Shown here one piece after another: positions 5,533-21,531 of a DNA stretch of 64,000 nt; the stretch's first letter is position 1, and each line of letters begins with the position of its first letter. Made by a program: the position numbers and the translations under genes. This DNA is from an uncultured Bacteroidota bacterium (GTDB lineage Bacteria > Bacteroidota > Bacteroidia > JABEUT01): the NCBI GenBank assembly GCA_963767125.1, contig CAVYDB010000002.1, positions 71,991 through 135,990 of the forward strand, in the 5' to 3' direction. The notes below the pieces were generated by a model. That model was not told the DNA's origin. It saw nothing but the letters and a program-made list of their open reading frames with translations, and searched no databases.

Positions 5533-5605
5533 GGCAGGTAAATGTCCCACGCTGATTTTTTATATAAACACCTATTTGGGACATTGGGGATAAAGACCAA
5601 CACCC

Positions 5606-6097
5606 ATGAAAAAATTGCTGTTATTATTTGTTGCTTCATTTTTATTTTCAACTTCGCAGTCACAAACTCCCAAATCTCTGTTAGGACAGTTGAAAATAGT
5701 TCCTCCCAATTCTAATTTGGATTCTATCCCTGAATCTAAAAAAGTTAATGACAGAGAATGTCTCGCGAATAATCTCGCGGAAGATACATCAATTTATACA
5801 AAGGTTAAACAAAATCCTAAGTTTCCCGGTGACCTTTACTTATGGCTTTCAAATCATATTGAATACCCAGAACAAGCAAAGGATTCCAATTTACAGGGTA
5901 TTGTTTATGCATCTTTTGTTGTTGAAATGAATGGTTCAGTTTCACGGAGTAAAATTGTGAAGGGTATAAATAAATTGATAGATGAAGAGGTTTTAGAGGT
6001 CATTTCTGAAATGCCAAAGTGGGAGCCAGGGAGAAATAATAAAGGGCAAATTGTGAGAGTTCAATTCACTCTACCAATTCACTTTTCGAATAGATAG
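5606..6097 (+). CDS. Secreted TonB C-terminal-domain protein
   Basis: Signal peptide 'MKKLLLLFVASFLFSTSQS'. The C-terminus 'PKFPGD...YPEQAKDSNLQGIVYASFVVEMNGSV...PKWEPG...V' matches the TonB_C layout. Confidence 0.65.
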   Translation: MKKLLLLFVASFLFSTSQSQTPKSLLGQLKIVPPNSNLDSIPESKKVNDRECLANNLAEDTSIYTKVKQNPKFPGDLYLWLSNHIEYPEQAKDSNLQGIVYASFVVEMNGSVSRSKIVKGINKLIDEEVLEVISEMPKWEPGRNNKGQIVRVQFTLPIHFSNR

Positions 6098-6255
6098 ATA
6101 TTTAAATGACCAGATTCAATACACCCGAGCAGGATAACTGAACAAAGAGGAACAATCACCTTCATCTTTCCCTGCAATAAATTTTCTTGATTTTATTGGT
6201 TGGACATTCCAAATTAAGTAGGACTGTTGCCCCAATTATTAAAACAAATAAAATC

Positions 6256-6669
6256 ATGGAAACAAAAATCAACGCCAGTTTCATTAAGAGAGCATCCTAT
6301 GCTACCCTTAGTCAACTGTGCAAACAAATGAATGTTGAATTTGAAAATCAATCTAAAGAAAAATTGCAAGAACTTCTTATTACTCAACTTAAACCTGAAG
6401 AGAAGCAAGTGATAAGCCCCGAACTAAAAGAAGCTGCTAAGGGAAATTCGACTGTAAAGAAGGTAGTAAAAAAGATAATTCATACTAAACCCACACCAAT
6501 TAAAAAAGCTGATAATGCCAAAAAGGCATCTGGGGTTAAGGAAGAAACTAAGTCGAGTAAAATCCTTGCTCTTTATTTAAAAGGCAAAAAAGTAAGTGAG
6601 ATAAGTACAGCATTAAATGCCCACCCTTCCTTCTGTTATACTGTAATAACTAAGCATAAAAAGAAATAA
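6256..6669 (+). CDS. Lys-rich putative DNA-binding protein (SAP/Rho-N-like N-terminus, HTH-like C-terminus)
   Basis: I take the start at ATG 6256 rather than the TTG at 6187. 'ATLSQLCKQMNVEFENQSKEKLQELLITQL' resembles a helix-extended-helix motif. The centre is Lys-rich, and 'KKVSEISTALNAHPSFCYTVI' is HTH-like. A terminator follows. Confidence 0.4.
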   Translation: METKINASFIKRASYATLSQLCKQMNVEFENQSKEKLQELLITQLKPEEKQVISPELKEAAKGNSTVKKVVKKIIHTKPTPIKKADNAKKASGVKEETKSSKILALYLKGKKVSEISTALNAHPSFCYTVITKHKKK

Positions 6670-6683
6670 CATTAAGAAGACAG

Positions 6684-6710
6684 AATGCCACTCTTTTGGG
6701 TGGCATTTTT
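6684..6710 (+). terminator. Rho-independent terminator
   Basis: Stem AATGCCAC (6684-6691) pairs with GTGGCATT (6700-6707), followed by a T-run. Confidence 0.65.
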
Positions 6711-6734
6711 GCATCTTAACAATAACTTAGACAT

Positions 6735-7158
6735 ATGCTTATACCTGTAAACAAAAAACGGAGGGAAGAACCTATTCAAAGGGCTCTAGATATATATTTT
6801 ATTTTAAGAGAAATATTGTACTCTAAACATAAATTCGACCAAGAAAAAGAACACTTCTATAGTATAATTCTCTCCTCGAATAAAAGGATAAAATGTATCG
6901 ATGAAGTTTCAATCGGTAGTAGCCGTTCAACAATTGTTCATCGGAGAGAAGTATTCCGATTTGCAATTCTAAAAGGAGCCCAGGCGATTATAGTAGCCCA
7001 TAATCATCCTTCAGGAAGTCTTGTCCCAAGTGAAGAAGATAAAAAAGACCATTAAGATTCTAGTTGAGGCTGGTAAAATTCTGAATATACCTATTCTTGA
7101 TAGTCTAATTATCTCTCCTAGGAATTATTACAGCTTCTTGGGAGATAATTCTCTATAA
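6735..7158 (+). pseudogene. radC: RadC-like JAMM protein (DUF2466), frameshifted
   Basis: 'VAHNHPSGSLVPSEEDK' is the JAMM HxHxxxxxxxxxxD-type motif. The frame breaks in the A6 run at 7041-7046. The next frame continues with the expected RadC C-terminus 'TIKILVEAGKILNIPILDSLIISPRNYYSF' to the stop at 7156-7158. Confidence 0.75.
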
Positions 7159-7248
7159 ACTTTAGACCTCATTTAGCTAATTTATTACGTATTATTGCAT
7201 ATTGTTTCTCCACGTATTTATATTATTTATCCCTTTAGTTTCTAATGC

Positions 7249-7911
7249 ATGACTGTCTACTTGAGTTCATTTTATCCATTATGTTCGACAAGGTCAGGGA
7301 AAAAAGCATCAAAGAACTTTAAATTTCCTCCATATATTGATGGTTCATGTAGACGGGAGCCTGATTTTGAGAAACAACATCCTTCTATTACAGGACTTTG
7401 TCGTCCACCTTTTGCAGCAAAACTCTGCAAGGGAGATATAGTAGTTTACACAACAAACAAATTAGGTATTGGTGCACGTAAAGTAGTGGCGGTGTTAGAA
7501 GTTATACATGTTATTCAAAAATCCAATGAAAACCCTAAATTTTCAACACATAAAAAAGCAGCTAAATGGTACTTTGAGAAAAAATATAAATTACCAAATA
7601 ATTTAATGGTAAAAGATAATATCCCTCATCCATTAGTTGAAACAAGCCGGAAAGGTAGGTGGGTAGATTGGGTCGGAGGAAAAAGTCTAAAAGAATGGGA
7701 TAAACATTATTTGGAACGCTCAATAAATACTAATGTTGCGATTTGTAAAGTGCTCTGCAAAGAATTAAATAATCCTATTGAGTTGACAGAAAATGAAATG
7801 TTGAGAATATTTGGGAGAAGACCTGGCACACGAAACCCATCAAAGGTTCAACCTAAAGAATGGGATGATTTTAGGAAGTGGTTATTCAAAAATAGATACA
7901 ATATTAAATAA
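7249..7911 (+). CDS. Hypothetical protein, family not recognised
   Basis: 220-aa ORF with a Cys/Arg-rich N-terminus 'PPYIDGSCRREPDFE...GLCRPPFAAKLCKGDIVVYTT' and a basic, Trp-rich C-terminal half. No family motif that I can name with confidence. Confidence 0.5.
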   Translation: MTVYLSSFYPLCSTRSGKKASKNFKFPPYIDGSCRREPDFEKQHPSITGLCRPPFAAKLCKGDIVVYTTNKLGIGARKVVAVLEVIHVIQKSNENPKFSTHKKAAKWYFEKKYKLPNNLMVKDNIPHPLVETSRKGRWVDWVGGKSLKEWDKHYLERSINTNVAICKVLCKELNNPIELTENEMLRIFGRRPGTRNPSKVQPKEWDDFRKWLFKNRYNIK

Positions 7912-8090
7912 TAACTATAGTTTTTGTTGGGAAGAGGATTGGCAAGTTTGGAGTAATGGATGATAGTCCGAAATGATAGGCATTTTTGACCGTATGTTTG
8001 ACCGCACGCAGTATCTCCCTAATAAATCTTGCTATTTATGCCATATTTCGGAAGAGATACCTGTTCCAATTAGGACAATAGTAAAATTTC

Positions 8091-8098
8091 TACCTTTG
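8091..8098 (+). promoter_or_regulatory. Bacteroidota -7 promoter box (TAnnTTTG)
   Basis: TACCTTTG lies 37 nt upstream of ATG 8135. Confidence 0.4.
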
Positions 8099-8134
8099 CG
8101 GAGGCACTGCGTATCTTCCAATTTAGAGATTATT

Positions 8135-8602
8135 ATGAGGACATTCTTGGAGCAACCTGAAGCGACATTTTACCATGTAACGACAATTGAAAAGTGGGTC
8201 ATAATTCAAGCCAATGGTTTAATACCGAATAATGGACGACTTTTTGTTTCAAGAGTTGGCGAACTGCCAATTCTTCTCGCAATAGCTTTTGAACAATTAC
8301 CTGAAATTTATTCAACCGAAGAAATTATCTTTTTGAAACTACCTCAATCTAAGAATAATTTTATGATTGATGAACTCAAACCTGACAATCAGGCGAGAGT
8401 TGAATGGACTCAACCATTTCAGAATATTATTCTTCGTCAACACATTGCTATTCAAAATATAGAATTAATGATGAGATTGCAATTAGGGCAAGAACCACAG
8501 AGAACATTCACTATTAACTACTTGACCCGCATCGCAAATGCAGGAAGGGAAAATTATCAAAATCACAGTATCACTGCAAGAGCATTACAATTAATTTATT
8601 AA
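8135..8602 (+). CDS. Hypothetical protein with an ADP-ribosyltransferase-fold-like opening motif (speculative)
   Basis: I take the start at ATG 8135; the ORF track extends to 7973, but that stretch contains the promoter box. 'FYHVTTIEKWVIIQANGLIPNNGRLFVSRV' is followed by the strand 'EEIIFLKLP'. Confidence 0.5.
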   Translation: MRTFLEQPEATFYHVTTIEKWVIIQANGLIPNNGRLFVSRVGELPILLAIAFEQLPEIYSTEEIIFLKLPQSKNNFMIDELKPDNQARVEWTQPFQNIILRQHIAIQNIELMMRLQLGQEPQRTFTINYLTRIANAGRENYQNHSITARALQLIY

Positions 8603-8620
8603 AACTGAACCACCTAAAGT

Positions 8621-8851
8621 ATGGCAACAAAAATGATTACTGAAACTGTTCAAGTAACAATAAGTTCCACGGAAGAAGAAATTAGACAGGTAGTATTTGG
8701 GAGTTCGCTTACTCCAATAGGTAAATTGTATGAAAGATACAACAAATGTATAGAATCATATAAGGGTAATGGTTACACGATTGTTAGTGAAGATTCAGAA
8801 AAGCTTTCGTTTATTGCAGAGAAGAAATATCTGGAGGAGGAAAAGAATTAG
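8621..8851 (+). CDS. Small hypothetical protein (76 aa), likely co-transcribed with 8135-8602
   Basis: Starts 18 nt after the upstream stop on the same strand. The C-terminus is acidic. No recognisable family. Confidence 0.45.
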   Translation: MATKMITETVQVTISSTEEEIRQVVFGSSLTPIGKLYERYNKCIESYKGNGYTIVSEDSEKLSFIAEKKYLEEEKN

Positions 8852-8921
8852 GTTAACCATAGAGGATAGGTACAATTTTGTGGATAATAGAATTGCCTAG
8901 TTGGAAATGCTATTATTATTC

Positions 8922-11636
8922 TTAAGAGATTTTATCTCGTAATTCAGCGATGAATCCTTTTCTTTGTAAATATTCTAAGTAGAATGCTTTTAAAGGTAAT
9001 TCTTCAGTTTTAGTAATTTTCTCTAACCATTCCATTGGTGCTTTTTTCATTTCATCGGGAATATGATTGGATATTTTAATTGCAACCGACCTAGAGATTC
9101 CCCTTGAAATCATTATTAATACATCAATTTTACGAGTACCTAACTCTAACATTGTTGGTAAATTTAAAGTACGATGATATAGCTTTTTTTGCTCCTCAGT
9201 CATTAGAGAGGCAAGAATATCAGTATAGACCTTAAAATATTTTACTAAAATAAAAGTGACAAGAATTGAATTGTAGTTGATGACATGGTTAATAATATTA
9301 TTGACCATCCTTACTTCACCTTTAAGCTTCATTTCACTCGGGTACTCTTCACGATAGTATTGAATATCTTCTTGTATTAAATCAGCTAAAGATAAACTTT
9401 GCAACCAAACAAATCCGTAATAAGCCATTTGGCGTGCACCAGCACTAGTACTTCTTATTGAAGCCTCCTTCCACATTGCAAAGATTCTATCTAGTTTAAG
9501 GATTAAATTCTCAAATTGATAGTAAAAACTTGCTTGTTGTATAGATAATGCTTCAGCATTTTTTCTAGTCATAAATACTTTCCCGAAATTGTCATTTCCT
9601 AGCTCCTGATCAATGATTACCCATTCTTCAAAGCCGTCAGATTTTATTGTCTCATATAGTTTATTCTGGAGAATGGGGTCTATACTAGGATTTAAGCGTA
9701 CTACATCCTTAGGTATAGTAAATTTTCCTAGTTTTTCTGTAATTATATCCGATATTATATTTACCTTGTTTTTATCTAACCCTCTTCCTTCTAGATAACT
9801 AATAAAATTTGATGGTTCTTCAATATACTTCTGTTTTATATAATTACCTGTGTATTCATCACCCTTATGCTTTAAAAATCGAGGTTCCCTATTTAGTACA
9901 TCAACAATAGCTTGGGTATCTTGTTTCATTACTTCATCGGTAATTAGTTTGACTTCCTTAGTATATTGTTCAGTATTATAATATGAATCTGCCCAATTAT
10001 CTGAGGGACTAACCTCAAGGCAAAAAACTGTCCCAATCATTCTCGCACCTATCCTTCCTGCTCTTCCAATCAAATTACTAAATTCAAAATGACTTAATTC
10101 AGCTCCATCTTTCTTTGGTGAAATGATAAACATTCGAGGAGCTGGAAGATTAACCCCTTGTAATAGCGTACTAGTACAAAAAAGATACTTTATATAACCT
10201 TTTTCAAATAAATATTCAACTTCATTTCTTACAAAATCTGGGAGTTTACCATGATGAAACGCTACATTATACTCAAGGCAATATATTAAGTAATAGTCTT
10301 TATGTATCTCTTCTTTTAACAAGTCGATAAACCTCTTAATAGCAGGGTGTATATCTTTTGGTTTATCACCATATCTCCTTAATTCCCTAACAAATTCAAT
10401 TGCATAACTTACACAATAATTTGCCTTAGGGGAATAAATAAGATTCCCATCTGGCTTCCCAAACCTTCTAACAATCGGAGCTAGATAGAATTTATTTGCA
10501 ACGTAATTATTAACCTTTAAATCCTCGCTTATCTCTATAGAGTGAGTCTTCTTGTCATTTAAAAATAGATTGACTTTTATAGTGTCATTATTAATATATT
10601 TAACAGCAAGCCGTAATTGATATACAGGCGGCAAATAAGTATGTACCTCTTCCGCAGATAAAGACATCAATTTTGTATATAACTCTTTACCATTATTGAT
10701 AAAAGGTCCAGCGAAAAGAATCTTTGCATTTATCCATATTCGTGGCATTTCTGAAAGAATACTAATTAGGAGAACTGCCCTGTTATCGTTTGTTTCGACA
10801 TTTTGAATCTCATCTACAAAAATGAAGTTCGGGTAAAATTTTTTATTCCAACCTTGCTGTAGTAACTTCAAACATCTTTCTGGAGTTACACAGTAAATTT
10901 CCTTTAGATTATTCTTATTATTTTGAGATGTCTCTATAGCTTCCTGCGAATCTTCAACAAATGCAGTCTTTATTAACACATCTTTGTCTAAGATTTTCTT
11001 GAAATCATCACTTACTTGGCTAATTAACGCTCTTGTTGGAACTATATAAATTACTTTGAATTCGGAGTTAGTTGAAAATAGGCTACCAATAAATCGTTGT
11101 ATAAAAAATGATTTTCCAGCAGAAGTCGGGGCTGAAATTGCAATTCTATTATGTATTTGGAGATTATCCCATAATTCTCTTTGGAAATCAGTTACGAAAT
11201 ATGTTGTATTACCAGTTTCTATTTTATTAATATTACGCTTAGTACCCACTTCGAAATCCAATACAATTCCAAAGCTTTTCCGAAACTTTCTTATATTAGT
11301 ATCCGCGTTTTGTTCCTCATAGACTGTTTGAAGATGGTTCGCAGCAGCAAGATTCCCTGTTCTTGATAAAATAGTATATGATAACTGCGTTTTTGATTCA
11401 TCTTTGTTATATTGAAGAAACAGCAATTTTGCAAAAGAAGCTGCGATAAATTGATGCTTTTCCTCTGAGCTATTAGCAAGTATTGATGCTAACCAACCAG
11501 CTTGACGTAATTTCTCATCATCAATTGGTAAATACCCATTTACTTTGTAATCAGAACAAAACTGGTTTACCGCTAATGTTTTAATAGCGTCTAATAATAC
11601 TGGATGATTTCTTACTGAATCAAATGTGTTGGACAT
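8922..11636 (-). CDS. hamB: Hachiman HamB, superfamily-2 DEAD/DEAH-type helicase
   Basis: 904 aa. Helicase motifs: I 'APTSAGKS', Ia 'IVPTRALISQV', II 'FVDEIQNV', V 'STLLQGVNLPA' and VI 'LIGRAGRIG'. The start overlaps the stop of the upstream DUF1837-like gene by 25 nt. Confidence 0.7.
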   Translation of the reverse strand: MSNTFDSVRNHPVLLDAIKTLAVNQFCSDYKVNGYLPIDDEKLRQAGWLASILANSSEEKHQFIAASFAKLLFLQYNKDESKTQLSYTILSRTGNLAAANHLQTVYEEQNADTNIRKFRKSFGIVLDFEVGTKRNINKIETGNTTYFVTDFQRELWDNLQIHNRIAISAPTSAGKSFFIQRFIGSLFSTNSEFKVIYIVPTRALISQVSDDFKKILDKDVLIKTAFVEDSQEAIETSQNNKNNLKEIYCVTPERCLKLLQQGWNKKFYPNFIFVDEIQNVETNDNRAVLLISILSEMPRIWINAKILFAGPFINNGKELYTKLMSLSAEEVHTYLPPVYQLRLAVKYINNDTIKVNLFLNDKKTHSIEISEDLKVNNYVANKFYLAPIVRRFGKPDGNLIYSPKANYCVSYAIEFVRELRRYGDKPKDIHPAIKRFIDLLKEEIHKDYYLIYCLEYNVAFHHGKLPDFVRNEVEYLFEKGYIKYLFCTSTLLQGVNLPAPRMFIISPKKDGAELSHFEFSNLIGRAGRIGARMIGTVFCLEVSPSDNWADSYYNTEQYTKEVKLITDEVMKQDTQAIVDVLNREPRFLKHKGDEYTGNYIKQKYIEEPSNFISYLEGRGLDKNKVNIISDIITEKLGKFTIPKDVVRLNPSIDPILQNKLYETIKSDGFEEWVIIDQELGNDNFGKVFMTRKNAEALSIQQASFYYQFENLILKLDRIFAMWKEASIRSTSAGARQMAYYGFVWLQSLSLADLIQEDIQYYREEYPSEMKLKGEVRMVNNIINHVINYNSILVTFILVKYFKVYTDILASLMTEEQKKLYHRTLNLPTMLELGTRKIDVLIMISRGISRSVAIKISNHIPDEMKKAPMEWLEKITKTEELPLKAFYLEYLQRKGFIAELRDKIS

Positions 11637-12595
11637 TTAACTTCATATTTAGATTGGACAGGCTTAGGTCTCCATTCGACACTATGAAAAGTCTTGTAGA
11701 GTAAATGTTTAAAATCATCAACGCTTTTCATCGGAATAAAGAAAAAATCGAGATAAACCTCTGAAACCTCCCTAAATTCCTTGCACAGTTCTTTAACATT
11801 AGAAGCGTAAGAGTTTAAGTTCTGATTTATTATTTCTTTTATCTTGTTTTCTCCGTCCTGATTATTTAATGCGTTAATTCCATCAATATTTTCGTCATCA
11901 TAAATTATTAAAACTGGATGTACCTTAACCCTAGCTTTATGCTCTTGTGTAGAGGGAATGAAACACTGGTATATGTAGTCAAGTTCTTCCTTACTTAGAT
12001 CAATACGAATATTTTTAGTCGCTACAAATAATTCGTAATTAAGCGCGCTATATTCATATTCTTTGTAGAACTTGTCCAATGAGACAAAGGCATCTTTTAG
12101 AGCATCTTTGAAAGAAGACCAGGTCTTTGCTTCACCAATTAATATTGCTGGTAATCCCTTGTAATCTCCGCAAAATAAACCGTCACCACCTTTTATTTGG
12201 TCGTTAGGATTTGTGGGGAGTTTAAAAATAACCATTGGGACTTTTAAAACCGCTTCGGTAAGTAGGTAAAGAACTAATTCTCCATACTTACCATCGTATG
12301 TAGGATTCTTATTACCGAAGTATTGTAGAGCATAAATAAATGGTTCGAGCTTTGCCTTCTTGATTCTTTCAATCTCCTTGTCATTCAAAACATATTTTTG
12401 AATTGAAGCAGCAATAAATTGGGCAAAACTGTTGGTATCATATTTAGTTCCAGTAAATTGAATACTATAAGTTCGAATAATTAGCTTTCCTTCCTCAATT
12501 ATAGTATGCTCGGTAAGATGTTCAGCCACCCATCCGCCATCTACAGTAATAAATTTTTCCCAATCTATTTTCATTGTTTTCATTAAGGAGAACAT
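11612..12595 (-). CDS. hamA: Hachiman HamA (DUF1837-like, PD-(D/E)xK nuclease motif)
   Basis: 327 aa with 'GGDGLFCGDYKGLPAILIGEAKTW', a D...ExK-type motif. Its size, its position immediately upstream of the helicase and the translational coupling all fit the HamA/HamB operon layout. Confidence 0.6.
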   Translation of the reverse strand: MFSLMKTMKIDWEKFITVDGGWVAEHLTEHTIIEEGKLIIRTYSIQFTGTKYDTNSFAQFIAASIQKYVLNDKEIERIKKAKLEPFIYALQYFGNKNPTYDGKYGELVLYLLTEAVLKVPMVIFKLPTNPNDQIKGGDGLFCGDYKGLPAILIGEAKTWSSFKDALKDAFVSLDKFYKEYEYSALNYELFVATKNIRIDLSKEELDYIYQCFIPSTQEHKARVKVHPVLIIYDDENIDGINALNNQDGENKIKEIINQNLNSYASNVKELCKEFREVSEVYLDFFFIPMKSVDDFKHLLYKTFHSVEWRPKPVQSKYEVKCPTHLIQ

Positions 12596-12659
12596 TAAAT
12601 TTCAAGTATTGCTCTCTAATATTGATTTACTATAAACAGAATAATTAGTGAATTCGCCC

Positions 12660-12667
12660 CAAAAATA
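12660..12667 (-). promoter_or_regulatory. Bacteroidota -7 box for hamAB (TAnnTTTG on the minus strand)
   Basis: The plus strand reads CAAAAATA, which is TATTTTTG on the minus strand. It lies about 65 nt upstream of the hamA start. Confidence 0.35.
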
Positions 12668-12707
12668 GCATTTTTAGTAGGATACTAACAAAATTGACAA
12701 TTGTTTA

Positions 12708-12715
12708 TACATTTG
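12708..12715 (+). promoter_or_regulatory. Bacteroidota -7 box for the DUF262/DUF1524 gene
   Basis: TACATTTG lies 39 nt upstream of ATG 12754. It is part of the 15-mer TGTTTATACATTTGC, which recurs at 15352-15366. Confidence 0.4.
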
Positions 12716-12753
12716 CCTACTTTCTTATAGTAATATATAATAAAAAATGAAGC

Positions 12754-14589
12754 ATGAACAAACAACTGATAAATAAAATTGATGCCAATGATACAAACAT
12801 CAATTTGCTATTGAAAGACCAGAAGTTCTTTATTGATTATTTTCAGCGTGAATACCGTTGGGCAGAGAAACATATTAAGCAGCTTGTTGAAGATTTAACA
12901 ACTACATTTTTAAAATCTTATAAAGCAGGTGATAAGCGTTCGGAAATTGCTAACTATCAAAATTATTATTTGGGTCCAATAGTATTCAGTATTAATCCAG
13001 AGAATAATAAAAAATCTATCATTGATGGTCAGCAACGGATTACATCCATTACTTTGGTACTTATATACCTAAATCATTTACAAGCAAATAATCCTAAGAA
13101 GGTATCTATTAGTGAATTGATATTCTCAGAAAAGTTTGATGAGAAATCTTTCAATATGTCTGATGAACCTAGGGAAGAATGTCTAACGGCATTGTTTGAA
13201 AATGGAGAATATGAATTGCAAGAGAAGGATGAGGAAACTGTTAAGAATATGGTGGAACGGTATGAGGATATTGGAAATTCGTTCCCCGAAGAAATTGATA
13301 CTATTGCTTTACCCTATTTCATAGACTGGTTTATTCAAAATGTTGTTGTTGTAACAATTACAGCCTATTCAGATGAAAATGCTTATACAATTTTTGAAAC
13401 CATGAATGACCGTGGGTTGAATCTCACTTCAACTGAAATGCTCAAGGGTTACGTACTTTCGAAGATTAAAGATAAAGTAAAAAGAAACGAAATAAATGAA
13501 CTTTGGAAATCCGAAATCAAGAAACTTCATCAGTATGGTGAAACAGTTGACCAAACTTTCTTTCAAGCATGGTTCCGAGGTAAATACGCTAAAACTATTC
13601 GTCCCGGTAAAGTTGGTTCCGAAAATAAAGATTTTGAATTAATAGGTTCCCGTTTTCATAGTTGGTTTAGAGATAACCATGAATCCCTATTCAAGCTCAA
13701 AAAGTCAGATGACTTCTATGATTTCTTCAAAAACCAATTCCCGTTTTATGTTAAATGGTATATGAAGTCCATGGATTTTCAAGTAATTTATAATCCTGAT
13801 GCACCGCATCTTTACTATATTCATCAATGGGGAATAGCTGAATCATTACAAGAACCACTTTTATTAGCTCCTATAAATTATGGGGATAATAATAGTGAAA
13901 TAAATAGCAAAATGGATTTTGTTGCAAGGTATATTGAAACATTCACCGTTAGAAGGGGAATAAGTTTTAGAAAATTTGGTCAAACTGCTATTAAATATAC
14001 GATGTTTAATCTAATAAAGCTAATAAGAGATAACGATTTAGAAACACTGGGCAATAATCTTTCAAATGAAATAGTAAGTATTGATGAGAACTGGGATAAA
14101 GTTTATTATTTCAGATTGCATGGGATGAACCGAAAGTTTGTTAAACATTTACTTTGTCGTATTTCAAGCTATCTAGATAATTTGGTTGGTAAAGGCACTA
14201 ATTATGTAACTTATCATCATCCTAATGGACGACAATTTGAGATTGAACATTTATGGGCAGATAAATTTAAAGAACATAAGGATGAGATTGACCAGGAAAC
14301 TGAATTTCAGGAATGGCGGAATGCTATAGGTGCATTAATACTTCTTCCCCAAGGGACAAATCAATCTTTTAATAGTGATAAATATGAGGATAAGCTAGAG
14401 CATTATTTAAAAGAAAATACCTATGCACAAACTTTGCATCCAGCATTTTACAAGAAAAATCCCAATTTTTTGAATTCAAAAGAAATTCAAAGCTTGGAGT
14501 TCATTTCGCACCCTCATATGAAAACCGCAGATATTGAAGAAAGGCTTTATTTAGTTCAACGTATATGTGAACAAATATGGTCATTCTAA
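12754..14589 (+). CDS. GmrSD-like type IV restriction endonuclease (DUF262 + DUF1524)
   Basis: 611 aa. N-terminal DUF262/ParB-like motifs 'DYFQREYRW' and 'IDGQQRITS'. C-terminal His-Me/HNH-like DUF1524 motifs 'FEIEHLWA' and 'NAIGALILLPQGTNQSFN'. Confidence 0.75.
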   Translation: MNKQLINKIDANDTNINLLLKDQKFFIDYFQREYRWAEKHIKQLVEDLTTTFLKSYKAGDKRSEIANYQNYYLGPIVFSINPENNKKSIIDGQQRITSITLVLIYLNHLQANNPKKVSISELIFSEKFDEKSFNMSDEPREECLTALFENGEYELQEKDEETVKNMVERYEDIGNSFPEEIDTIALPYFIDWFIQNVVVVTITAYSDENAYTIFETMNDRGLNLTSTEMLKGYVLSKIKDKVKRNEINELWKSEIKKLHQYGETVDQTFFQAWFRGKYAKTIRPGKVGSENKDFELIGSRFHSWFRDNHESLFKLKKSDDFYDFFKNQFPFYVKWYMKSMDFQVIYNPDAPHLYYIHQWGIAESLQEPLLLAPINYGDNNSEINSKMDFVARYIETFTVRRGISFRKFGQTAIKYTMFNLIKLIRDNDLETLGNNLSNEIVSIDENWDKVYYFRLHGMNRKFVKHLLCRISSYLDNLVGKGTNYVTYHHPNGRQFEIEHLWADKFKEHKDEIDQETEFQEWRNAIGALILLPQGTNQSFNSDKYEDKLEHYLKENTYAQTLHPAFYKKNPNFLNSKEIQSLEFISHPHMKTADIEERLYLVQRICEQIWSF

Positions 14590-14671
14590 TACTTTGCTTC
14601 GTAAAATGTAGATTTTTATGAGAAAAATAAAATAACCCCGAGAAAATTTGGAAAATTCAATATTTATGTGT

Positions 14672-14679
14672 TAATTTTG
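14672..14679 (+). promoter_or_regulatory. Bacteroidota -7 box (TAATTTTG)
   Basis: Its 3' end (14679) lies 22 nt upstream of ATG 14701. Confidence 0.35.
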
Positions 14680-14700
14680 TAGTTACTAAACCCATTTACT

Positions 14701-15195
14701 ATGGAAATATATACTTATGACTTTGATGTGTATAATAGGCATGTCACGCTTTATTTCGACAACGGACAACAATTGAAGGTGTTCCTAAATCAGGACTCGG
14801 GTAAGATTTATATGCGCCCTAAAATAGGCAGCACGTTTGGTGTATATCATAAGGGAATATACTTAGGGTACTCTGAAAAGGGACAACAAATAATGATTCA
14901 TAATCACAGCACCCCAGGAAGGGCTGTAATAACGACTTGGGGAGACTTTTTACAGAATCAATCATCATTTCTTGATGATAAGGTATGTTCAAATGCTCCA
15001 ATTGAAAGACTTAAAATTGCTTTAGCAAACGTTTTACAACGGGAGCCATACGATTTACTTAATAACTCCTGCCAAACCTTTGTAAACGAAACCTGTACAA
15101 ATGAACGTAAAAACGATGATACAGGAAAAGTTCTTCTTGGTATCGCAGCCACAGGTTTGATTATAGCAGGGCTAAATGCTTTATTTGGAGAATGA
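14701..15195 (+). CDS. LRAT/PLAAT-like NlpC/P60-superfamily protein with a C-terminal membrane anchor
   Basis: His box 'YHKGIYLGY...IMIHNHS' and Cys box 'NSCQTFVNE' (compare NCEHF in LRAT/H-RAS-like suppressors). A hydrophobic helix 'VLLGIAATGLIIAGLNALF' sits at the extreme C-terminus. Confidence 0.6.
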   Translation: MEIYTYDFDVYNRHVTLYFDNGQQLKVFLNQDSGKIYMRPKIGSTFGVYHKGIYLGYSEKGQQIMIHNHSTPGRAVITTWGDFLQNQSSFLDDKVCSNAPIERLKIALANVLQREPYDLLNNSCQTFVNETCTNERKNDDTGKVLLGIAATGLIIAGLNALFGE

Positions 15196-15255
15196 CTGAA
15201 TCAAACCCCTAATCTTTGTGATTTATTGGTATTTAACCACTAAACAATACTCCAA

Positions 15256-15294
15256 GGAAATTTGGGGAAACCAAGTGATTCAAACAGTATTAAG
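15256..15294. repeat. att-like imperfect direct repeat, copy B
   Basis: GGAAATTTGGGGAAACCAAGTGATTCAAACAGTATTAAG shares ordered blocks with 5305-5334. It lies about 60 bp past the last cargo gene. Confidence 0.3.
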
Positions 15295-15357
15295 TGCAAC
15301 TTGATACTCATTAGAATCTTTTTATTGTATTCAGTCCCGAATTCAGTCAAATGTTTA

Positions 15358-15365
15358 TACATTTG
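15358..15365 (+). promoter_or_regulatory. Orphan promoter-like -7 box (TACATTTG) within the repeated 15-mer
   Basis: The same 15-mer occurs at 12702-12716. No annotated plus-strand ORF lies downstream, and a terminator follows at 15488. Confidence 0.3.
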
Positions 15366-15487
15366 CATAGGTACACCTAGTATTTTATTCTAAAGAGAAA
15401 TCCTTTTGAGCTGCTCTATAAGGGTGCATATGAGTTTACACGTATGTTTAAAACCTTCCAGGTCGGACAACATTTAATAACTTCAAG

Positions 15488-15517
15488 GCACTTAATATTA
15501 AGTGCTCTTTTTGTTTT
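15488..15517 (+). terminator. Rho-independent terminator (plus-strand orientation)
   Basis: Perfect palindrome GCACTTAATATTAAGTGC (15488-15505) followed by TCTTTTTGTTTT. Confidence 0.6.
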
Positions 15518-15520
15518 CTA

Positions 15521-16639
15521 TCAAAGGTTTGTCCATTTTATTCCATCCCATTGGGAAACGTAATTGGAGTCCAATTTGTTTGATACGAATACACTCACTA
15601 TCCCATATAGGTTATTATTGTAATTAGCCAACGAGAAAACCGAATTATTTATTCCTGAACCAACAGTAGACCATAATGTTCCATTCCATTGAACAATTCC
15701 TGAGCCGGTATTTCCATTATCACAAAACACCCCCGCAAAAAGATTATTGTTATATGAACCCAAAGCAAACGACTCATTCACTCCAGAACCTAAAGCTGAC
15801 CAATTTGTCCCATTCCATTCTGCTACTGAATTAGCAGAAATTCCACCTGCTACGCCAAAGTATCCTCCAGCGTAAAGATTACCATTGCATACTGTTAATG
15901 CTACAACTGGAAAATCATCAACAGAGTCATTAATTCCACTCCCGACTGTTGACCATATAGTATCATTCCATTTCGCAATGTTATTAACAGCAATATAGCC
16001 ATTAGCCCACGAAAATCCACCACAAGCATATAAAAATCCCTCATAAATAGCTAATGCATTTACTGTACCAGTTGCTCCAATTATGGTTAAACCATTGTCG
16101 ACCGACGACCATGTGGAACCATTCCATTTGGCAATTGAATTCACAGCATTCCCACTAACGTTGTAGAAATTACCACCAACATAGAGGTTTCCATTATATA
16201 CTGCCATGGTATTAAATACAACAGTACTATATAGGTAGGGAGACTGGAAACCACCTGGAATCGAATCCCATGTTGTGCCATCCCATTTCGCAAATTGGCT
16301 ATTCGAGTTGCTATTTCCAATAGTAAACTCTCCGGCAGCTATAAGATTACCATTATATACCGCTAATGCAGTGACATTTCCATTCAATCCTAAACCCAAT
16401 GCAGACCATGATGTTCCATTCCATTCTACAATGCTATTGCACGGTGTCCCATGAATATTTGAGAATTTGCCACCAACAACAAGGTTACCATTATAATCGA
16501 TTAATGCGTTCATAAGTGGACCGGATTTTACAGGTGTAGCAATTTTTGGCGTTACTGTTACAGTTTTTTTATCACACGCAATTATGTAAGCACACACTAT
16601 TACAAACATGAGAATTCGAATCAATCTGAAGTATTTCAT
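15521..16639 (-). CDS. Secreted or lipoprotein repeat protein (beta-propeller-like 'WNGT.WS.LG.G.N' repeats)
   Basis: I take the start at ATG 16639 ('MKYFRLIRILMFVIVCAYIIAC', lipoprotein-like signal). About 7 repeats of 'A.WNGT.WS..G.G.N..V.AL..YNGNLY.GG.F' follow. Confidence 0.6.
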   Translation of the reverse strand: MKYFRLIRILMFVIVCAYIIACDKKTVTVTPKIATPVKSGPLMNALIDYNGNLVVGGKFSNIHGTPCNSIVEWNGTSWSALGLGLNGNVTALAVYNGNLIAAGEFTIGNSNSNSQFAKWDGTTWDSIPGGFQSPYLYSTVVFNTMAVYNGNLYVGGNFYNVSGNAVNSIAKWNGSTWSSVDNGLTIIGATGTVNALAIYEGFLYACGGFSWANGYIAVNNIAKWNDTIWSTVGSGINDSVDDFPVVALTVCNGNLYAGGYFGVAGGISANSVAEWNGTNWSALGSGVNESFALGSYNNNLFAGVFCDNGNTGSGIVQWNGTLWSTVGSGINNSVFSLANYNNNLYGIVSVFVSNKLDSNYVSQWDGIKWTNL

Positions 16640-16879
16640 AAACACGCTCTCGCCATATCTTAGCAATTATAGTCATTTTTTTGTACTTCATAGCCACTAT
16701 CTTGCAATAACCATTTAAGCTGCACATAATGCTTTTCCCCCTTTTCATCACTACCGCCCTTCCCTTTCCCCCCATTCAACTATCAATTACCCCATCTTAA
16801 CGAATAAGAAGAAATAATGCCATTCCCCGGGCTAACTTCGTATAGATAAAAGATAGAAATGTAGTTAAATACACACATT

Positions 16880-18547
16880 ATGCCACGGACTAAATTAAGT
16901 AAGAAAAATGTGGAAGCTCCGGCAGAAATTAAGAAGGTAGAAGTAAGATTGCTCCGGGTTACTGATTATTTAGGGCTTTTTGATTCTATGAAAGAAGCCT
17001 ATAAGAATTGGCATGGTACATTATGGCCCGAGAAAACGATAGAGCGGCTGATAGAGGTATTTCCCGAAGGGCAAATTGTAGTGCTTGTAAATGAGAGAGT
17101 AGTTGGAGTAGCCCTTTCCATCATTGTGAATTATGAAGATTTTGGAGACGAGCATACCTATAAAGAAATTACAGGCAATTATACCTTCGATACTCATAAT
17201 CCGGATGGAGATGTGTTATATGGAATAGAGGTTTTTGTGCATCCCGATTACCGTGGACTAAGGCTCGCAAGGCGCTTGTACGATGCCCGCAAAGACCTCT
17301 GCGTAAAATTGAATTTGAAAGCTATTGTATTTGGCGGAAGGATACCCAATTTTAAAGAACACTCTGTCAAATTAAACCCCCGCCAGTATATTGAAAAAGT
17401 AAAAACCAAGGAAATATATGACCCGGTGCTGTCTTTTCAACTGTCTAATGAATTTCATGTGGTTAAACTATTGAATGATTATATGCCTCATGATGAGGAA
17501 TCGAAAGCTTATGCAACACTAATGGAATGGAACAATGTGCTGTATGAAAAACAAACCAAACACCCTCAGCAAAAAAAGAGTTCTGTGCGGGTAGGTTTGG
17601 TACAGTGGCAAATGCGCTCCTTTAAAACGTTTGAAATGCTCTGCGAACAAATCGAATTCTTTATAGATTCGGTCGCCGGATATAAATCTGATTTTATTTT
17701 GTTTCCGGAATTATTTAATGCCCCGCTGATGGCTGAATTTAACCACCAGAGCCAGGCAGAAGCCATACGTAGCCTTACCCAATATACAGAGCCGTTGCGC
17801 GATATATTCAGCAAGTACGCCGTTACCTTCAATATCAATATTATTACCGGGAGTATGCCTGTTCTTTTTGACGGGAAACTTTATAATGTAGGCTACCTGT
17901 GCAGAAGAGACGGTTCTATTGAAAGTTACATAAAAATACATGTGACACCCAACGAAGTAAACGCCTGGGGAATAGTAGGCGGAAGTAAATTGAAAGTATT
18001 TGATACCGATGCCGGAAAAATTGGAATACTGGTGTGCTACGATGTGGAGTTTCCGGAACTTTCGAGGCTGCTTGCCTTGCAGGGTATGGAAATATTATTT
18101 GTGCCTTTCCTTACCGATACTCCTAACGCTTTTACACGGGTAAGGTCATGTGCAATGGCGAGAGCGATAGAAAACGAATGTTTTGTGGCTATTGCCGGAT
18201 GTGTGGGTAATTTGCCCAAAGTACATAACATGGATATACAATATGCCCAATCTTCTGTTTTCACCCCTGCTGATTTTGCTTTTCCAACTAATGGAATAAG
18301 AGCGGAAGCTACCCCAAATTCAGAGGCTGTAGTGATAGCCGACCTGGATCTTGATATGTTAAAAAAAATGCGCTCGCATGGCAGCGTGCGTAACCTGCTT
18401 GACCGGCGAACAGACCTATATGAATTAAAGCAGCTTATACCTGCCGGAAAATGGGATATTGTAAACCAGCCTACAAAACCAGGTGAAGCCAAAATATCCA
18501 TAGGACGGAATGGCGTAATTAATATTCACCATCCCGATAGCCCGTAA
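16880..18547 (+). CDS. Bifunctional GNAT acetyltransferase / carbon-nitrogen hydrolase (nitrilase superfamily) protein
   Basis: N-terminal GNAT motif 'VHPDYRGLRLARRLY'. The C-terminal half carries the E-K-C triad context: 'FPELFNAP', 'IKIHVTPNE' and 'ILVCYDVEFPE'. Confidence 0.8.
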   Translation: MPRTKLSKKNVEAPAEIKKVEVRLLRVTDYLGLFDSMKEAYKNWHGTLWPEKTIERLIEVFPEGQIVVLVNERVVGVALSIIVNYEDFGDEHTYKEITGNYTFDTHNPDGDVLYGIEVFVHPDYRGLRLARRLYDARKDLCVKLNLKAIVFGGRIPNFKEHSVKLNPRQYIEKVKTKEIYDPVLSFQLSNEFHVVKLLNDYMPHDEESKAYATLMEWNNVLYEKQTKHPQQKKSSVRVGLVQWQMRSFKTFEMLCEQIEFFIDSVAGYKSDFILFPELFNAPLMAEFNHQSQAEAIRSLTQYTEPLRDIFSKYAVTFNINIITGSMPVLFDGKLYNVGYLCRRDGSIESYIKIHVTPNEVNAWGIVGGSKLKVFDTDAGKIGILVCYDVEFPELSRLLALQGMEILFVPFLTDTPNAFTRVRSCAMARAIENECFVAIAGCVGNLPKVHNMDIQYAQSSVFTPADFAFPTNGIRAEATPNSEAVVIADLDLDMLKKMRSHGSVRNLLDRRTDLYELKQLIPAGKWDIVNQPTKPGEAKISIGRNGVINIHHPDSP

Positions 18548-18900
18548 GGACTATAGTTCAGGCTGCCTATAATCAATAGTTTATAACTTTTTAGTCGCAT
18601 TTCAATCTGTAAATCTATAGCTTATCCCAAAAAACAGGTATTAAATTTGAATTGTAAACTTTACATTATATAATAGGAGTGTGACTTCTTACAGTCTAAA
18701 ATGGCTTGTAACTATAGGTAGTTATCAACATGGGGGGCATTTTGCATTCTGTATAATTTATAAAAGTGTAAAACTAAACGTTGTTTTTTCGAGGCAATTT
18801 AATCTATGGGGGATAAGTATAAAGCCGTCTTTTATCCAAGAATGTCGATACTTTCTTCCTGAAATATTTTTATTTTTGACCTGTCATTTAATAAAGGCTA

Positions 18901-19719
18901 ATGAAACCAAAGGCAATTATTCCATTAAGTTTATTTTTCTCCATTGGCTTACCAACTATTTATGCCCAATCAAAGACCAGCAAGGGTACTCAATCAGATA
19001 TAACCATCAGCCGCAATGTTTCAGCGACCCAATATAATCCTTCGGGAGAAGCGGTAGTAATAGTTACTATCACTATAAATAAAAATACTTCAAGAGGCAA
19101 GGCTATGCTGGAAGAAGACTTCTCAAGTGACCTGGAAGCAACAGTAATAAAAGGTGACGGGGCAGTATTTCAAACTAAAAATGGCGAAGCAGATTTTGAA
19201 TGGGTTAATATTCCCCTGGATAAGGATGTGACTATTTCTTACCAACTGAAAGCAGTAAAAAAGACAACTGATGACCAAGCCGTTTTTGGGAAATTTTCGT
19301 ACCAAAATCATACCTATGCCATAAGCCCCTCTTCCTTTTCGTTAAAAATTGTTTCGGGAGCAACCAAGCCTCGGCCTATGTCCAAGGATTCTGTAATTTC
19401 CGCCAATACAATACCTTCTCATACGGCTTCTCCGTCAAAGCCCGGGGAGCTAATTTACCGTATCCAGCTTGCAGCGGTTCCCGATAAATTGAAAGCACAG
19501 GAATTGTTGAAAGAATATAAAATTACAGATGAGCCTTACCTGGAAACGGTTAATGCATCCACCATGCGCTTGATGATAGGTAGCTATTCAAACTTCAGTT
19601 CAGCTAAAGCTAAGATAGATGAATTAAGAAGTAAGGGAGTAACGGGGGCTTTTGTTGTACCTTACTATAAAGGGAAAAGGACCAACCTACAGGATGCTGC
19701 AATGCACACCCAGCAGTAG
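18901..19719 (+). CDS. Secreted protein with a C-terminal SPOR (peptidoglycan-binding) domain
   Basis: Has a signal peptide. The C-terminus 'YRIQLAAVPDKLKAQELL...MIGSYSNFSSAKAKIDELRSKGVTGAFVVPY' fits the SPOR pattern. Confidence 0.6.
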   Translation: MKPKAIIPLSLFFSIGLPTIYAQSKTSKGTQSDITISRNVSATQYNPSGEAVVIVTITINKNTSRGKAMLEEDFSSDLEATVIKGDGAVFQTKNGEADFEWVNIPLDKDVTISYQLKAVKKTTDDQAVFGKFSYQNHTYAISPSSFSLKIVSGATKPRPMSKDSVISANTIPSHTASPSKPGELIYRIQLAAVPDKLKAQELLKEYKITDEPYLETVNASTMRLMIGSYSNFSSAKAKIDELRSKGVTGAFVVPYYKGKRTNLQDAAMHTQQ

Positions 19720-19734
19720 TGGAAAAAAGGAATA

Positions 19735-21531
19735 TTAATTTCCTGCAGCCACTCCGTTTTCGTATTTCACTTTTCTCTGAATGTTCCCGTTTTTATCATA
19801 AAAAATCCATTCCCCGGAAGGAAGGCTGCGAAGTGAGCCGTTTTTTTCTTTTTCTACAGAATAATCTGTACTACTTTCCATTTTAGCATTTGGGAAATAA
19901 GAGGTACATTTTCCCGAAAGCAACCCATTAGTAAGGGTCTGGTCTTCCATCAGCACGCCACTCTCATAATAAAAACTCCAGTGACCATCTGGTTTATCCC
20001 GGCTATAATTTCCTTCCTGAACCTTGATGCCTGAGGGTTGTAGAAAAATCCAATGTCCCTCTTTTAAATCCTTACTGAAGTCGCCTTCATCTTGCAAAGC
20101 GCCATTGTCATACCAATACTTCCAATGTCCTTGTTTTAAATTATTATTGCGGTTGCCTTCGTATTTAAGTTTACCATTTTCCGACCAACCTTTCCAATCT
20201 CCTTCCATACTTCCGGCTTTATATCCGCCCTCATCTTTTTCCTGTCCGTTTTCATAGTAAGATTTCCAGGTTCCTTCTTCCAAATCGTTCAAATAATTCC
20301 CCTGTTCGCTAACCTGTTTTCCGGGATACCAAATAGTACAGAGTCCATTTCGTAAATTACTTTTATAGTAACATTCTTTCAGTTTGGCGCTACTGCTGTC
20401 GTAATAGTAAGTCCATAGGCTATCTTGCTCATCATTTTTAAAATATCCCTTTACAGTAGTATCGCCCGTAGTTTCAAAGTATATCCAAAATCCCTCTCTC
20501 TTTTTATTGTGCATATCGCCGGACAATTTCAATTTGCCATTTTCAAAATACCAATCCCAGTGACCTTCTTTTTCACCATTGGTGAAATTTCCTTTTGATT
20601 TTATCTTATTCCCTCTGTACCACGAGGTATAGGGGCCATTTTGTTTTCCGCCCGAATAAGTCGTTTCATTATCCCCGCTTCCATCCGGGAAATTATATTT
20701 CCACAATCCGTCTTTCAAGCCATTTACATATTTCCCGTTGGCCTGAACAGCCCCGCCGGGGTAATAAAGAGTAATAGAACCATTGCCGCCTGAAACAGTT
20801 TGCTTACCTTCGGGTGTATAGTATTCTTCCATATAAACGAGTGTGTCGGAATGTGTGACGATATCTTTTAGTTTCCCATTTTCATACCACTCGTGCCATT
20901 TGCCCGTTTCTTTGTCGTCATGGAAATCTCCTTCACTTTCCTTATTTCCGTTTTCGTACCACGATGTATAATGTCCTTCTTTTTTATCCTGCGTAAATGT
21001 TCCCCGGTTTTTAGTTTTCCCGTTATTGTAATAATAAGTCCAGAGACCTTCTTTCTTCCCCTTTTGAAAAGGGGTTATGCTGGTGAGAACGCCGGTGCTA
21101 TCCCACGATTTCCAAATGCCATCTTTTATATTCTCTTTAAAAGAATTAATCAGGGCGGTATCCCCATCCAAATAGAAAAGAATAAAAGTTCCGTTGGCTT
21201 TGCCGGATTGGTAATGCTTAATGGATTTTATTTTCCCGTTTTTGAAAAAATATTTCCAAACACTGTCTTTTTCACCTTTCTTAAAAAAACCTGATTGGTC
21301 CAATTGGCCGTTTTCATACCATAACTTAGAGGAGCCATGTTGCATCCCATTCAGATAATTGATTTCACTTTTTTTTATACCTGCTGCGCTATCCCAATAT
21401 TCTATTACAGGTTGAGAGAATGAAGAAAAATAAAGGAAGAGAAAACCAACGAATAGTAGTTTCTCCAAGCCCGAAACTATGAAAGGGGATCTTACCATCT
21501 TATTCATATCGCAATGCTTCAATCGGGTCAA
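19735..21531 (-). CDS. MORN-variant (YwqK-like) repeat protein
   Basis: Many tandem 'G.K.G.W..WYENGK...EG.Y..D...G.W' repeats. The exact start is uncertain (several Met codons between 21498 and 21531). Confidence 0.7.

Follow-up and report, generated by a model that had tools for sequence, protein, structure and literature searches.

What kind of protein is encoded by the short gene at the right-hand edge of a low-GC island in this uncultured Bacteroidota bacterium, and does it serve the defence systems beside it? The DNA analysed, called the window below, is the whole stretch of 64,000 nucleotides, and the gene in question is the coding sequence at 14701-15195 on the forward strand. A preliminary description, made from the letters alone, had read it as a tail-anchored protein of the LRAT/PLAAT type beginning at 14672; that position belongs to a TAATTTTG box upstream of the gene, and the ATG lies at 14701. 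From the open reading frame, its homologs, family profiles, a structural model and substitution rates, we describe the 164-residue product as a divergent LRAT/PLAAT-like enzyme of the circularly permuted NlpC/P60 type with a predicted tail anchor. The explanation that we find best, while placing it slightly below an even call, is that of a conditional phospholipid-attacking effector carried as cargo of defence islands.

The open reading frame at 14701-15195 is a real gene. Between the window protein and a 90%-identical homolog from another locus, L002 (85.6% nucleotide identity), the synonymous divergence (dS) is 0.80 and the nonsynonymous divergence (dN) is 0.052, and the resulting dN/dS of 0.065 shows that the gene is functional and under strong purifying selection. 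Loci of homologs are referred to by such L numbers throughout.

Homologs were collected by scanning all 1.84 billion cluster representatives with HMMER. This returned 125 clusters at E<=1e-3, of which 77 also reach E<=1e-10, almost all with a length of about 155-195 residues; a word-index search gave two proteins only. The family alignment, A1, holds 96 of the 125 homolog clusters, and residue numbers refer to the 164-residue window protein. In this alignment the His box, YHKGIYLG, keeps its histidine H50 (codon 14848-14850) in 94 of 96 members, and the Cys box, NSCQTFVN in the window protein, keeps C124 (15070-15072) in 92 and the adjoining Q125 in 91. The strand IMIHNH, located between the two boxes, carries H67 (14899-14901; 95/96), N68 (76/96) and H69 (14905-14907; 89/96), while the signature tyrosine Y117 (15049-15051) is present in 94/96. 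A further conserved strand, SGK..R.K, lies closer to the N-terminus with G34 (96/96), R39 and K41 (91/96 each); all these elements are read on the forward strand. Both boxes quoted in the preliminary description, YHKGIYLGY...IMIHNHS (H50, H67 and H69) and NSCQTFVNE (C124), are thus found in the protein, and they stand above chance because they are kept in 89-95 of the 96 homologs. The family consensus of the Cys box is NNCQT(F/L), compared to NSCQTF in the window protein. At position 138, a serine is found in 89/96 homologs and an asparagine in the window protein.

The protein can be divided into three parts. Residues 1-28 (14701-14784, forward strand) form a family-specific N-terminal extension, modelled by AlphaFold2 (AF2) as three beta strands (residues 3-9, 14-19 and 24-28); this extension is missing in PLAAT and also in the sister family introduced below, for which the alignment begins at residue 29. 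The catalytic core comprises residues 29-135 (14785-15105, forward strand), as seen from the conservation counts, the profile alignment to the PDB and Foldseek. At the C-terminal end follows the putative tail anchor VLLGIAATGLIIAGLNALF, residues 144-162 (15130-15186, forward strand), whose Kyte-Doolittle mean over 19 residues is 2.17, the maximum of the protein. The AF2 model has a C-terminal helix spanning residues 141-162, and only G163 and E164 come after the hydrophobic segment. The hydrophobic tail reported earlier therefore stands, with the correction that it ends two residues, not three, from the C-terminus. In the homologs, the most hydrophobic 19-residue segment likewise lies in the C-terminal part, with a score of at least 1.6 there in 70/96. 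A C-terminal hydrophobic anchor, which is a feature of the PLAAT subfamily, is thus predicted both from hydrophobicity and from the AF2 helix. No signal peptide is found in the 164-residue protein and its single helix sits at the extreme C-terminus, so the catalytic domain would be cytoplasmic and held at the inner membrane.

Searched as a single sequence against Pfam, NCBIfam, PHROGs, PADLOC and the PDB, the window protein gives nothing significant. Since there is no significant LRAT match at this level, the assignment rests on family profiles and on the fold. The A1 profile searched against the PDB finds HRASLS2 (4dpz) at E=2.9e-4 and the PLAAT3 structures 4fa0, 4dot and 7zom at about 1e-3 (to 1.5e-3). 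This alignment covers the Tyr/Cys box and the 'RSDQV' segment that follows it, 'pY.L.s.NC..fVN......rSdqV', and Y117 is aligned with the 'PY.L' of HRASLS2 and PLAAT3. The structures of the PPPDE family, 2wp7 and 3ebq, are matched by the same profile at E=0.07. The order of the catalytic residues, H50 before C124, is the circularly permuted one, and H67, N68 and H69 are candidates for the third polar residue after the His box, which is H35 in PLAAT3.

The AF2 model, made on A1, has a pLDDT of 94.6 and a pTM of 0.85, and its core is predicted to adopt the fold of the PLAAT catalytic domain. The first seven Foldseek matches in the PDB (4fa0, 7zom, 4dot, 2kyt, 7c3z, 7zot and 4q95) are all PLAAT3, PLAAT4 or an HRASLS3/LRAT chimera, with probabilities of 0.8-1.0, E-values from 8e-3 to 0.1 and TM-scores of 0.68-0.73 when normalised to the PLAAT3 crystal chains. 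No PPPDE structure is found among the top 50 PDB matches. Against BFVD, a collection of predicted viral structures, the best matches are picornavirus polyproteins and giant-virus proteins named 'lecithin retinol acyltransferase'. Picornavirus 2A proteins include LRAT-like 'H-box/NC' domains.

A link to proteins already recognised by Pfam comes from a sister family. Searching 401 same-phylum genomes yielded eight further and more distant proteins, 133-180 residues long (L013-L020), which have the canonical NCE(H/S) box and a hydrophobic C-terminal tail, and all seven that were aligned pass the Pfam LRAT threshold. Alignment of A1 to this family using hhalign gives a probability of 99.3% and E=1e-20 over 143 columns, with H50 aligned to the invariant histidine of the sister family and Y117 and C124 to its tyrosine and cysteine. 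The two families are alike in size, in the His box, in the Tyr/Cys box and in the tail, and both occur in defence or mobile islands. However, the sister family differs from the window family in its NCE(H/S) box, in passing the Pfam LRAT threshold, in having no N-terminal extension and in carrying an asparagine, instead of HNH, on the strand of the third residue.

Some observations weigh against placing the family here. The window protein scores E=0.41 against Pfam LRAT (PF04970; 11.4 bits, cut-off 24.3), and its best match to an enzyme family in Pfam is Peptidase_C97 (PF05903; E=0.02, residues 38-133, 15.2 bits, cut-off 29.2), so that neither the LRAT nor the PPPDE gathering threshold is reached. 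Scanned one by one, the members of A1 give weak PPPDE/Peptidase_C97 matches in 45/96 cases (best 7e-8, all below threshold), LRAT matches at E<=0.1 in 33/96 (best 1.7e-6) and YaeF/YiiX C92 matches in 5/96. C97, LRAT and C92 are all permuted papain-like families, but as more members weakly match C97 than LRAT, a peptide or isopeptide substrate is possible. Nor is the literal NCEHF box of PLAAT present: the window protein has NSCQTF, and the family has N(N/S)CQ(T)(F/L).

Because the alignment to the sister family, the PDB profile and the fold agree, we nevertheless count the family among the LRAT/PLAAT-like permuted NlpC/P60 enzymes, where it forms a divergent branch below the Pfam threshold, as judged from profiles and the predicted structure. 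We have little doubt about the LRAT-like fold and the catalytic set. The earlier reading of a tail-anchored LRAT/PLAAT-like protein is in this way upheld at the profile and fold level only; the expected match to the LRAT hidden Markov model fails for the single sequence, and the link is made by the alignment of the family profile to sister proteins that pass the threshold.

Vertebrate PLAAT/HRASLS1-5 and LRAT (PF04970; 4dpz, 4fa0, 4dot, 7zom, 7zot, 4q95) thus have the same permuted fold, in which the His box precedes the Cys box, and share the signature tyrosine, the 'pY.L...NC..fVN......(R/K)S(D/E)' segment and the single C-terminal hydrophobic helix. They differ from the window family not only in the Cys box, but also in that this family has the conserved HNH strand (H67, N68, H69), the SGK..R.K strand, the 28-residue N-terminal beta unit and a setting in bacterial mobile and defence islands; the identity is about 18%. 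The superfamily, the PLAAT layout and bacterial Pfam-LRAT proteins were already known. What is new is a divergent, unannotated subfamily with mobile and defence contexts.

How could such a protein act? Substrate, toxicity and a role in defence are what we infer in the following. The enzyme would be held on the inner membrane by its single C-terminal helix and face the cytoplasm, and in its active site C124 would be the nucleophile, H50 the base and H67 the third residue, with Y117 as the signature tyrosine of the superfamily. By analogy to PLAAT and Tox-Act1, the cysteine may take over a fatty-acyl chain from a membrane phospholipid as an acyl-thioester. The thioester would then be resolved by hydrolysis, i.e., a phospholipase A1/2 reaction giving a lysolipid and a free fatty acid, or by transfer of the acyl group to another acceptor. 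PLAAT enzymes are described as phospholipases A1/2 and acyltransferases (PMC4624172), and YiiX binds fatty acid (PMC3142127). Tox-Act1 cleaves phosphatidylglycerol and phosphatidylethanolamine, and its toxicity requires its histidine and cysteine (PMC12994826). From these analogies a lipid substrate appears somewhat favoured. The C-terminal hydrophobic domain of PLAAT1 and PLAAT3 is required for their move to organelle membranes, which they degrade, and PLAAT4 is an interferon-stimulated restriction factor (PMC10102619).

Tox-Act1 and TseH, effectors of type VI secretion systems, are likewise bacterial permuted NlpC/P60 enzymes used in biological conflict (PMC12994826). They are, however, secreted, act from the periplasm and come with a membrane immunity protein, unlike the window protein, which has no N-terminal trafficking region and a predicted cytoplasm-facing topology. 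Neither the window nor the surroundings of the homologs at about 33 further loci, where all open reading frames within 5 kb of a homolog were clustered, show a secretion-system, Rhs, PAAR, VgrG or immunity gene. In a published tree, the LRAT/PLAAT-like enzymes and Tox-Act1/TseH also fall into different clades of the superfamily (PMC12994826).

The distribution of the family is patchy. Among the 401 same-phylum genomes, it occurs in one only, the window's own, and within 18 genomes of the genus, many of them incomplete, a strong match is again seen in the window's genome only, with weak matches in two others, one of which has an internal stop. In the tree, the window protein forms a clade with L002, L012 and L038 (support 100/99). 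The idea that the gene belongs to phages or to sequenced plasmids was considered and dropped, as the phage, plasmid and viral-contig collections are without relatives. Three homologs are broken (L001:9803-10303, L030:9804-10297 and L069), two of them by frameshifts and one by an internal TAA, which suggests frequent decay after transfer.

The commonest neighbour of the relatives is a regulator. Of the 20 informative loci, i.e., those with enough upstream sequence, eight carry, within 3.5 kb upstream, an Xre-type helix-turn-helix (HTH) domain and an M78 (ImmA/IrrE) peptidase, encoded by one fused gene or by two separate ones. The fused HTH-M78 protein matches RmrA in PADLOC at E=1e-50, and capP and capH as well. 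Sister genes stand beside HTH+M78 at L013, L016 and L019, and at L014:9830-11334 and L015:8670-10174 a sister gene with an NCEH box directly follows a 334-residue WYL-WCX regulator of the CapW/BrxR-like type (at L014 as a similarity read by eye). The flanks of these two loci differ, by eye, with type I restriction-modification genes in one and an ATPase and a multiubiquitin/E2/E1-JAB operon in the other, and the WYL-WCX gene and the sister gene may form a two-gene regulator-effector module. Both types of regulator, HTH+M78 (CapH/CapP; RmrA) and WYL (CapW/BrxR), are DNA-damage- or phage-responsive controllers of defence operons (PMC13228613, PMC11662680, PMC10440598).

Other neighbours are defence or mobile genes. 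An AbiLi-like AAA_21 gene is found at L024 and L025, the latter also with RloB and a 2087-residue NACHT protein, and L038 has mad2/mad8-like genes and L021 AbiEii. At L051 a dCTP deaminase, a Multi_ubiq/Prok-E2/ThiF-JAB operon and Tn7 genes are present, integrases are located near some relatives, and a plasmid-like ParA at L026/L030. A sister gene at L020 lies beside genes read by eye as patatin and cyclase genes.

We suggest that the protein is a conditional membrane-damaging effector of the abortive-infection type, carried as cargo of mobile defence islands. In many relatives, expression would be placed behind DNA-damage- or phage-responsive repressors, which are HTH+M78 in the family and HTH+M78 or WYL in the sister family. 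The idea of an abortive-infection effector, put forward earlier, is plausible and gains support, because defence-island and mobile neighbours as well as stress-type regulators are found in relatives. A defence or abortive-infection role is still a tentative proposal, with the probability rather on the other side.

The preliminary description also knew of no described defence gene with this architecture, and this agrees with our searches. PADLOC v2.0 has no model for either family: the window protein matches only JAB, at E=0.007 and with no passing stretch, and meaningful matches are found in 0 of 96 family and 0 of 7 sister proteins. No publication on an LRAT/NlpC-type defence gene was found in the literature searched.

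Several points count against an effector role. The association with defence genes is a raw listing of neighbours, and the regulator loci are partly close kin in the tree, so they represent only about 4-5 independent lineages. The window copy itself has no regulator, antitoxin or partner gene, and it would be difficult for a cell to tolerate a lipase that is always toxic and has its own promoter; for a lone copy, a latent or harmless enzyme is as good a reading as a toxin. Some homologs have ordinary surroundings: the frameshifted copy at L001 adjoins gldC in an otherwise housekeeping-looking stretch, the genes adjoining the homolog at L022 are read by eye as nutrient-uptake and sigma-factor genes, and at L028:3463-6824 the homolog is followed by three tandem genes, by eye membrane fatty-acid desaturases, the only lipid-metabolism neighbourhood seen. 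Finally, the phage collection, the plasmid collection and the viral-contig scan returned no relative.

The regulators also allow an explanation that overlaps with the effector, namely that the protein acts as the toxin in an addiction or toxin-antitoxin module, similar to RosmerTA, that serves mainly to stabilise mobile elements. In RosmerTA, one ImmA-type antitoxin is found with varied, unrelated toxins, one of which depolarises the membrane and has a C-terminal membrane region (PMC10440598). The HTH-M78 genes beside the relatives and the WYL-WCX genes beside sister genes resemble the controllers of RosmerTA, CapH-CapP and CapW operons, and the RmrA-like gene upstream of many relatives, the integrases, ParA and Tn7 genes nearby and the pseudogenised copies at L001, L030 and L069 would all suit such a module. 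The window copy may then be an orphan after loss of HTH-M78, inert or weakly expressed.

However, unlike in RosmerTA, the window copy is without an RmrA gene, and no RmrT model in PADLOC matches the window protein or the family. The whole window clade (the window, L002, L012 and L038) is without an HTH-M78 regulator, yet the gene is under the strong purifying selection described above. Moreover, in the loci where the regulator is present as part of a cassette, a DUF3368 PIN-like gene directly follows HTH-M78 and the LRAT-like gene comes 2-4 genes further, so the PIN protein is maybe the real toxin. We regard the toxin-antitoxin explanation as unlikely.

The cassette itself was observed in one clade. 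In order, it contains HTH-M78, the DUF3368 PIN-like gene (PDC-S70-like), an 88-residue protein, DUF2188, a 73-residue CxxC...CxC zinc-ribbon protein whose gene overlaps the start of the LRAT-like gene, the LRAT-like gene and a 207-residue protein with an N-terminal hydrophobic helix. It is located at L021:3090-6570, L039:1680-4853 and L050:5605-9128, and also at L042, L043, L046 and L049, and looks like an undescribed module related to RosmerTA. The zinc-ribbon gene, present at six loci, was considered as a universal partner and rejected, being absent from the window clade.

The protein could instead be a membrane-lipid remodeller outside of defence that rides on mobile elements and performs acyl exchange, synthesis of N-acyl-phosphatidylethanolamine or LnsA-like N-acylation of lipoproteins. 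PLAAT/LRAT enzymes are acyltransferases as well as lipases (PMC4624172). In S. aureus, lipoprotein N-acylation depends on LnsA, a member of the NlpC/P60 superfamily that finds its best remote matches among permuted members (PMC7387801). The three genes at L028 read by eye as desaturases, and a window copy that stands alone without an immunity gene, as would suit a harmless enzyme, also fit. Against this, no lipid-metabolism gene is a conserved neighbour at the about 33 loci, and a very patchy gene whose copies decay to pseudogenes, and which recurs beside defence and mobile-element genes and stress-type repressors, is not what would be expected of such an enzyme; we find it quite unlikely.

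The weak C97 matches raise the alternative of a PPPDE/DeSI-like thiol peptidase or isopeptidase at the membrane. Instead of acting on phospholipid, it would strip a protein of a ubiquitin-like or acyl group, or cut a lipoprotein or a lipid-linked peptide. PPPDE/DeSI isopeptidases (PF05903; 2wp7, 3ebq) share the permuted His...Cys papain-like core, and other permuted NlpC/P60 enzymes have been proposed as amidases (PMC3142127). The homolog at L051 adjoins the Multi_ubiq/Prok-E2/ThiF-JAB operon, and operons similar by eye lie near the sister genes L014 and L019. These operons, however, already encode a JAB peptidase and are not a conserved neighbour. The profile and fold searches reported above also favour PLAAT: the PDB profile scores are weaker for PPPDE (0.07 vs 3e-4), the best seven folds are all PLAAT and none of the top 50 is PPPDE, and hhalign links the family to members of Pfam LRAT at 99.3%. 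In addition, the solved PPPDE chains that were found are not listed as membrane proteins. This alternative is improbable.

The proposal that the gene product works as an accessory subunit of the neighbouring GmrSD-like enzyme or of Hachiman, also made in the preliminary description, is essentially refuted: the same strand, the 111-nt gap, the lack of a terminator-like site between the genes and a 47-nt motif (D6) that flanks the two-gene block speak for it, but no DUF262/DUF1524 (GmrSD) or Hachiman gene lies beside a homolog at any of the about 33 other loci, and in L002 the 90%-identical copy stands behind a PtuB/PDC-M01B-like HNH gene, with nothing but its own promoter block retained.

Returning to the phospholipid-attacking effector, lipid attack and a defence role, if true, would add a papain-like acyl-enzyme lipase to the defence effectors. 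The known defence phospholipase effectors are of the patatin type, e.g., in CBASS. It would also tie animal PLAAT proteins, which are picornavirus host factors, include an interferon-stimulated restriction factor and degrade organelles in the lens, to an ancestry in bacterial conflict systems. About 125 clusters, at 50% identity, are missed by the thresholds of Pfam, NCBIfam, PHROGs and PADLOC, and naming the family helps to annotate genomes that are probably from Bacteroidota. With just one gene of 164 codons to work with, the candidate can easily be tested.

A wider speculation is that tail-anchored PLAAT-type thiol phospholipases are an immune module found both in the defence islands of bacteria and in the innate immunity of animals, in the way that cGAS, gasdermin, viperin and TIR are shared by the two. 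In this case, the protein would be a single-gene effector that is repressed by CapH/CapP-, RmrA- or CapW-like proteins, or that is latent until the membrane is disturbed. The cell membrane would be destroyed upon phage attack, similar to the degradation of organelles by PLAAT3 and PLAAT1 and to restriction by PLAAT4, and the NCQ/HNH subfamily would be a new, unannotated branch. We consider a module of such breadth unlikely.

The gene appears to move on its own. A promoter-like element of the type described for Bacteroidota, TTTG-N21-TAATTTTG, lies at 14647-14679 on the forward strand and ends 22 nt before the ATG. This is a pattern match, and as the pattern occurs seven times in the window compared to 4.3 expected, a lone match is weak evidence. 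However, about 70 nt of upstream sequence, with both boxes, form a block that is also conserved at the L002 and L012 homologs, whose upstream genes differ. The box of its own that had been ascribed to the gene is therefore there (14672-14679), and the conservation of the block in the window, L002 and L012 argues that the gene moves as a self-contained unit with its own promoter. We describe it as an autonomous single-gene cargo with its own predicted promoter. No terminator-like site is found between the GmrSD-like and the LRAT-like gene, such sites being no commoner than chance across the window.

Downstream of the gene, the motif TTCAGTCAAATGTTTATACATTTGC, with a TAnnTTTG-type box, is located at 15340-15366 on the forward strand; it is repeated at 12698-12744 and conserved 3' of the L002 homolog. 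The motif TTCAGTCAAAyGTTTATACrTTT is found downstream of the gene both in the window and at L002, and also before the GmrSD-like gene. The 47-nt direct repeat D6 (74% identity), which carries CAAnTGTTTATACATTTGC with a TAnnTTTG-type box, lies at 12698-12744 before the GmrSD-like gene and at 15348-15394, about 150 nt after the LRAT-like gene, and its core is conserved 3' of the L002 homolog as well (L002:1390-1422). The repeat could be the promoter of an unannotated downstream transcript or a module boundary.

The surroundings in the window are those of an island. On the upstream side are found a DUF3987 gene, an IS3-type transposase, a DUF6371 gene, a tyrosine integrase (3920-5203) and several unassigned genes. 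The Hachiman operon occupies 8922-12595 on the reverse strand, with HamA at 11612-12595 (PADLOC HamA1 E=1e-101) and HamB at 8922-11636 (HamB1 E=4e-241). It is followed by a GmrSD-like type IV restriction gene at 12754-14589 on the forward strand, which matches Pfam GmrSD_N (PF03235, E=1e-33) and GmrSD_C (PF07510) as well as HEC-06, Orf5 and SspE in PADLOC. As had been described, the LRAT-like gene comes directly after it; it is on the same strand, 111 nt away, and no HTH or M78 gene is present in the window between 5.3 and 15.5 kb.

The position at the island edge is confirmed by a step in GC content at about 15 kb, from 0.31-0.34 to 0.36-0.41, and in relatives from the genus conservation of the chromosome starts only at the GNAT-nitrilase gene (about 16.9 kb). 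No tRNA gene was found at the island edge in window positions 1-20000. An imperfect att-like direct repeat, GAAATTwGGGrAAwCCAAGy ... CAGTATTAAG, was seen by aligning its two copies, one at 15256-15302 on the forward strand, just 3' of the LRAT-like gene, and a partner at about 5304-5342, just 3' of the integrase. The copies bracket 10 kb of low-GC cargo, and given this bracket and the low GC, the LRAT-like gene would, if the repeat is real, be the last cargo gene inside it.

Two elements near other members of the families were also observed. At L066/L067:1-13142, a Tn7-like element (TnsA, TnsB, TniB, TniQ) adjoins a cargo block with a dCTP deaminase, a Multi_ubiq/Prok-E2/ThiF-JAB operon, a sigma-70 region-2 protein, a 76-residue gene product and the LRAT-like gene. 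A TrwB/VirD4-like ATPase of about 1010 residues, mad8-like in PADLOC and with an N-terminal QFYxWExRGRGW motif, is found near a family member at L038:4489-7512 and near a sister member at L017:5324-8359.

To the right of the island, the window contains at 15521-16666, on the reverse strand, a gene for a 381-residue lipoprotein-like protein with internal repeats of about 140-160 nt (families D1-D5). It gives weak matches to DUF5122 beta-propellers, and only its repeats match relatives from the genus.

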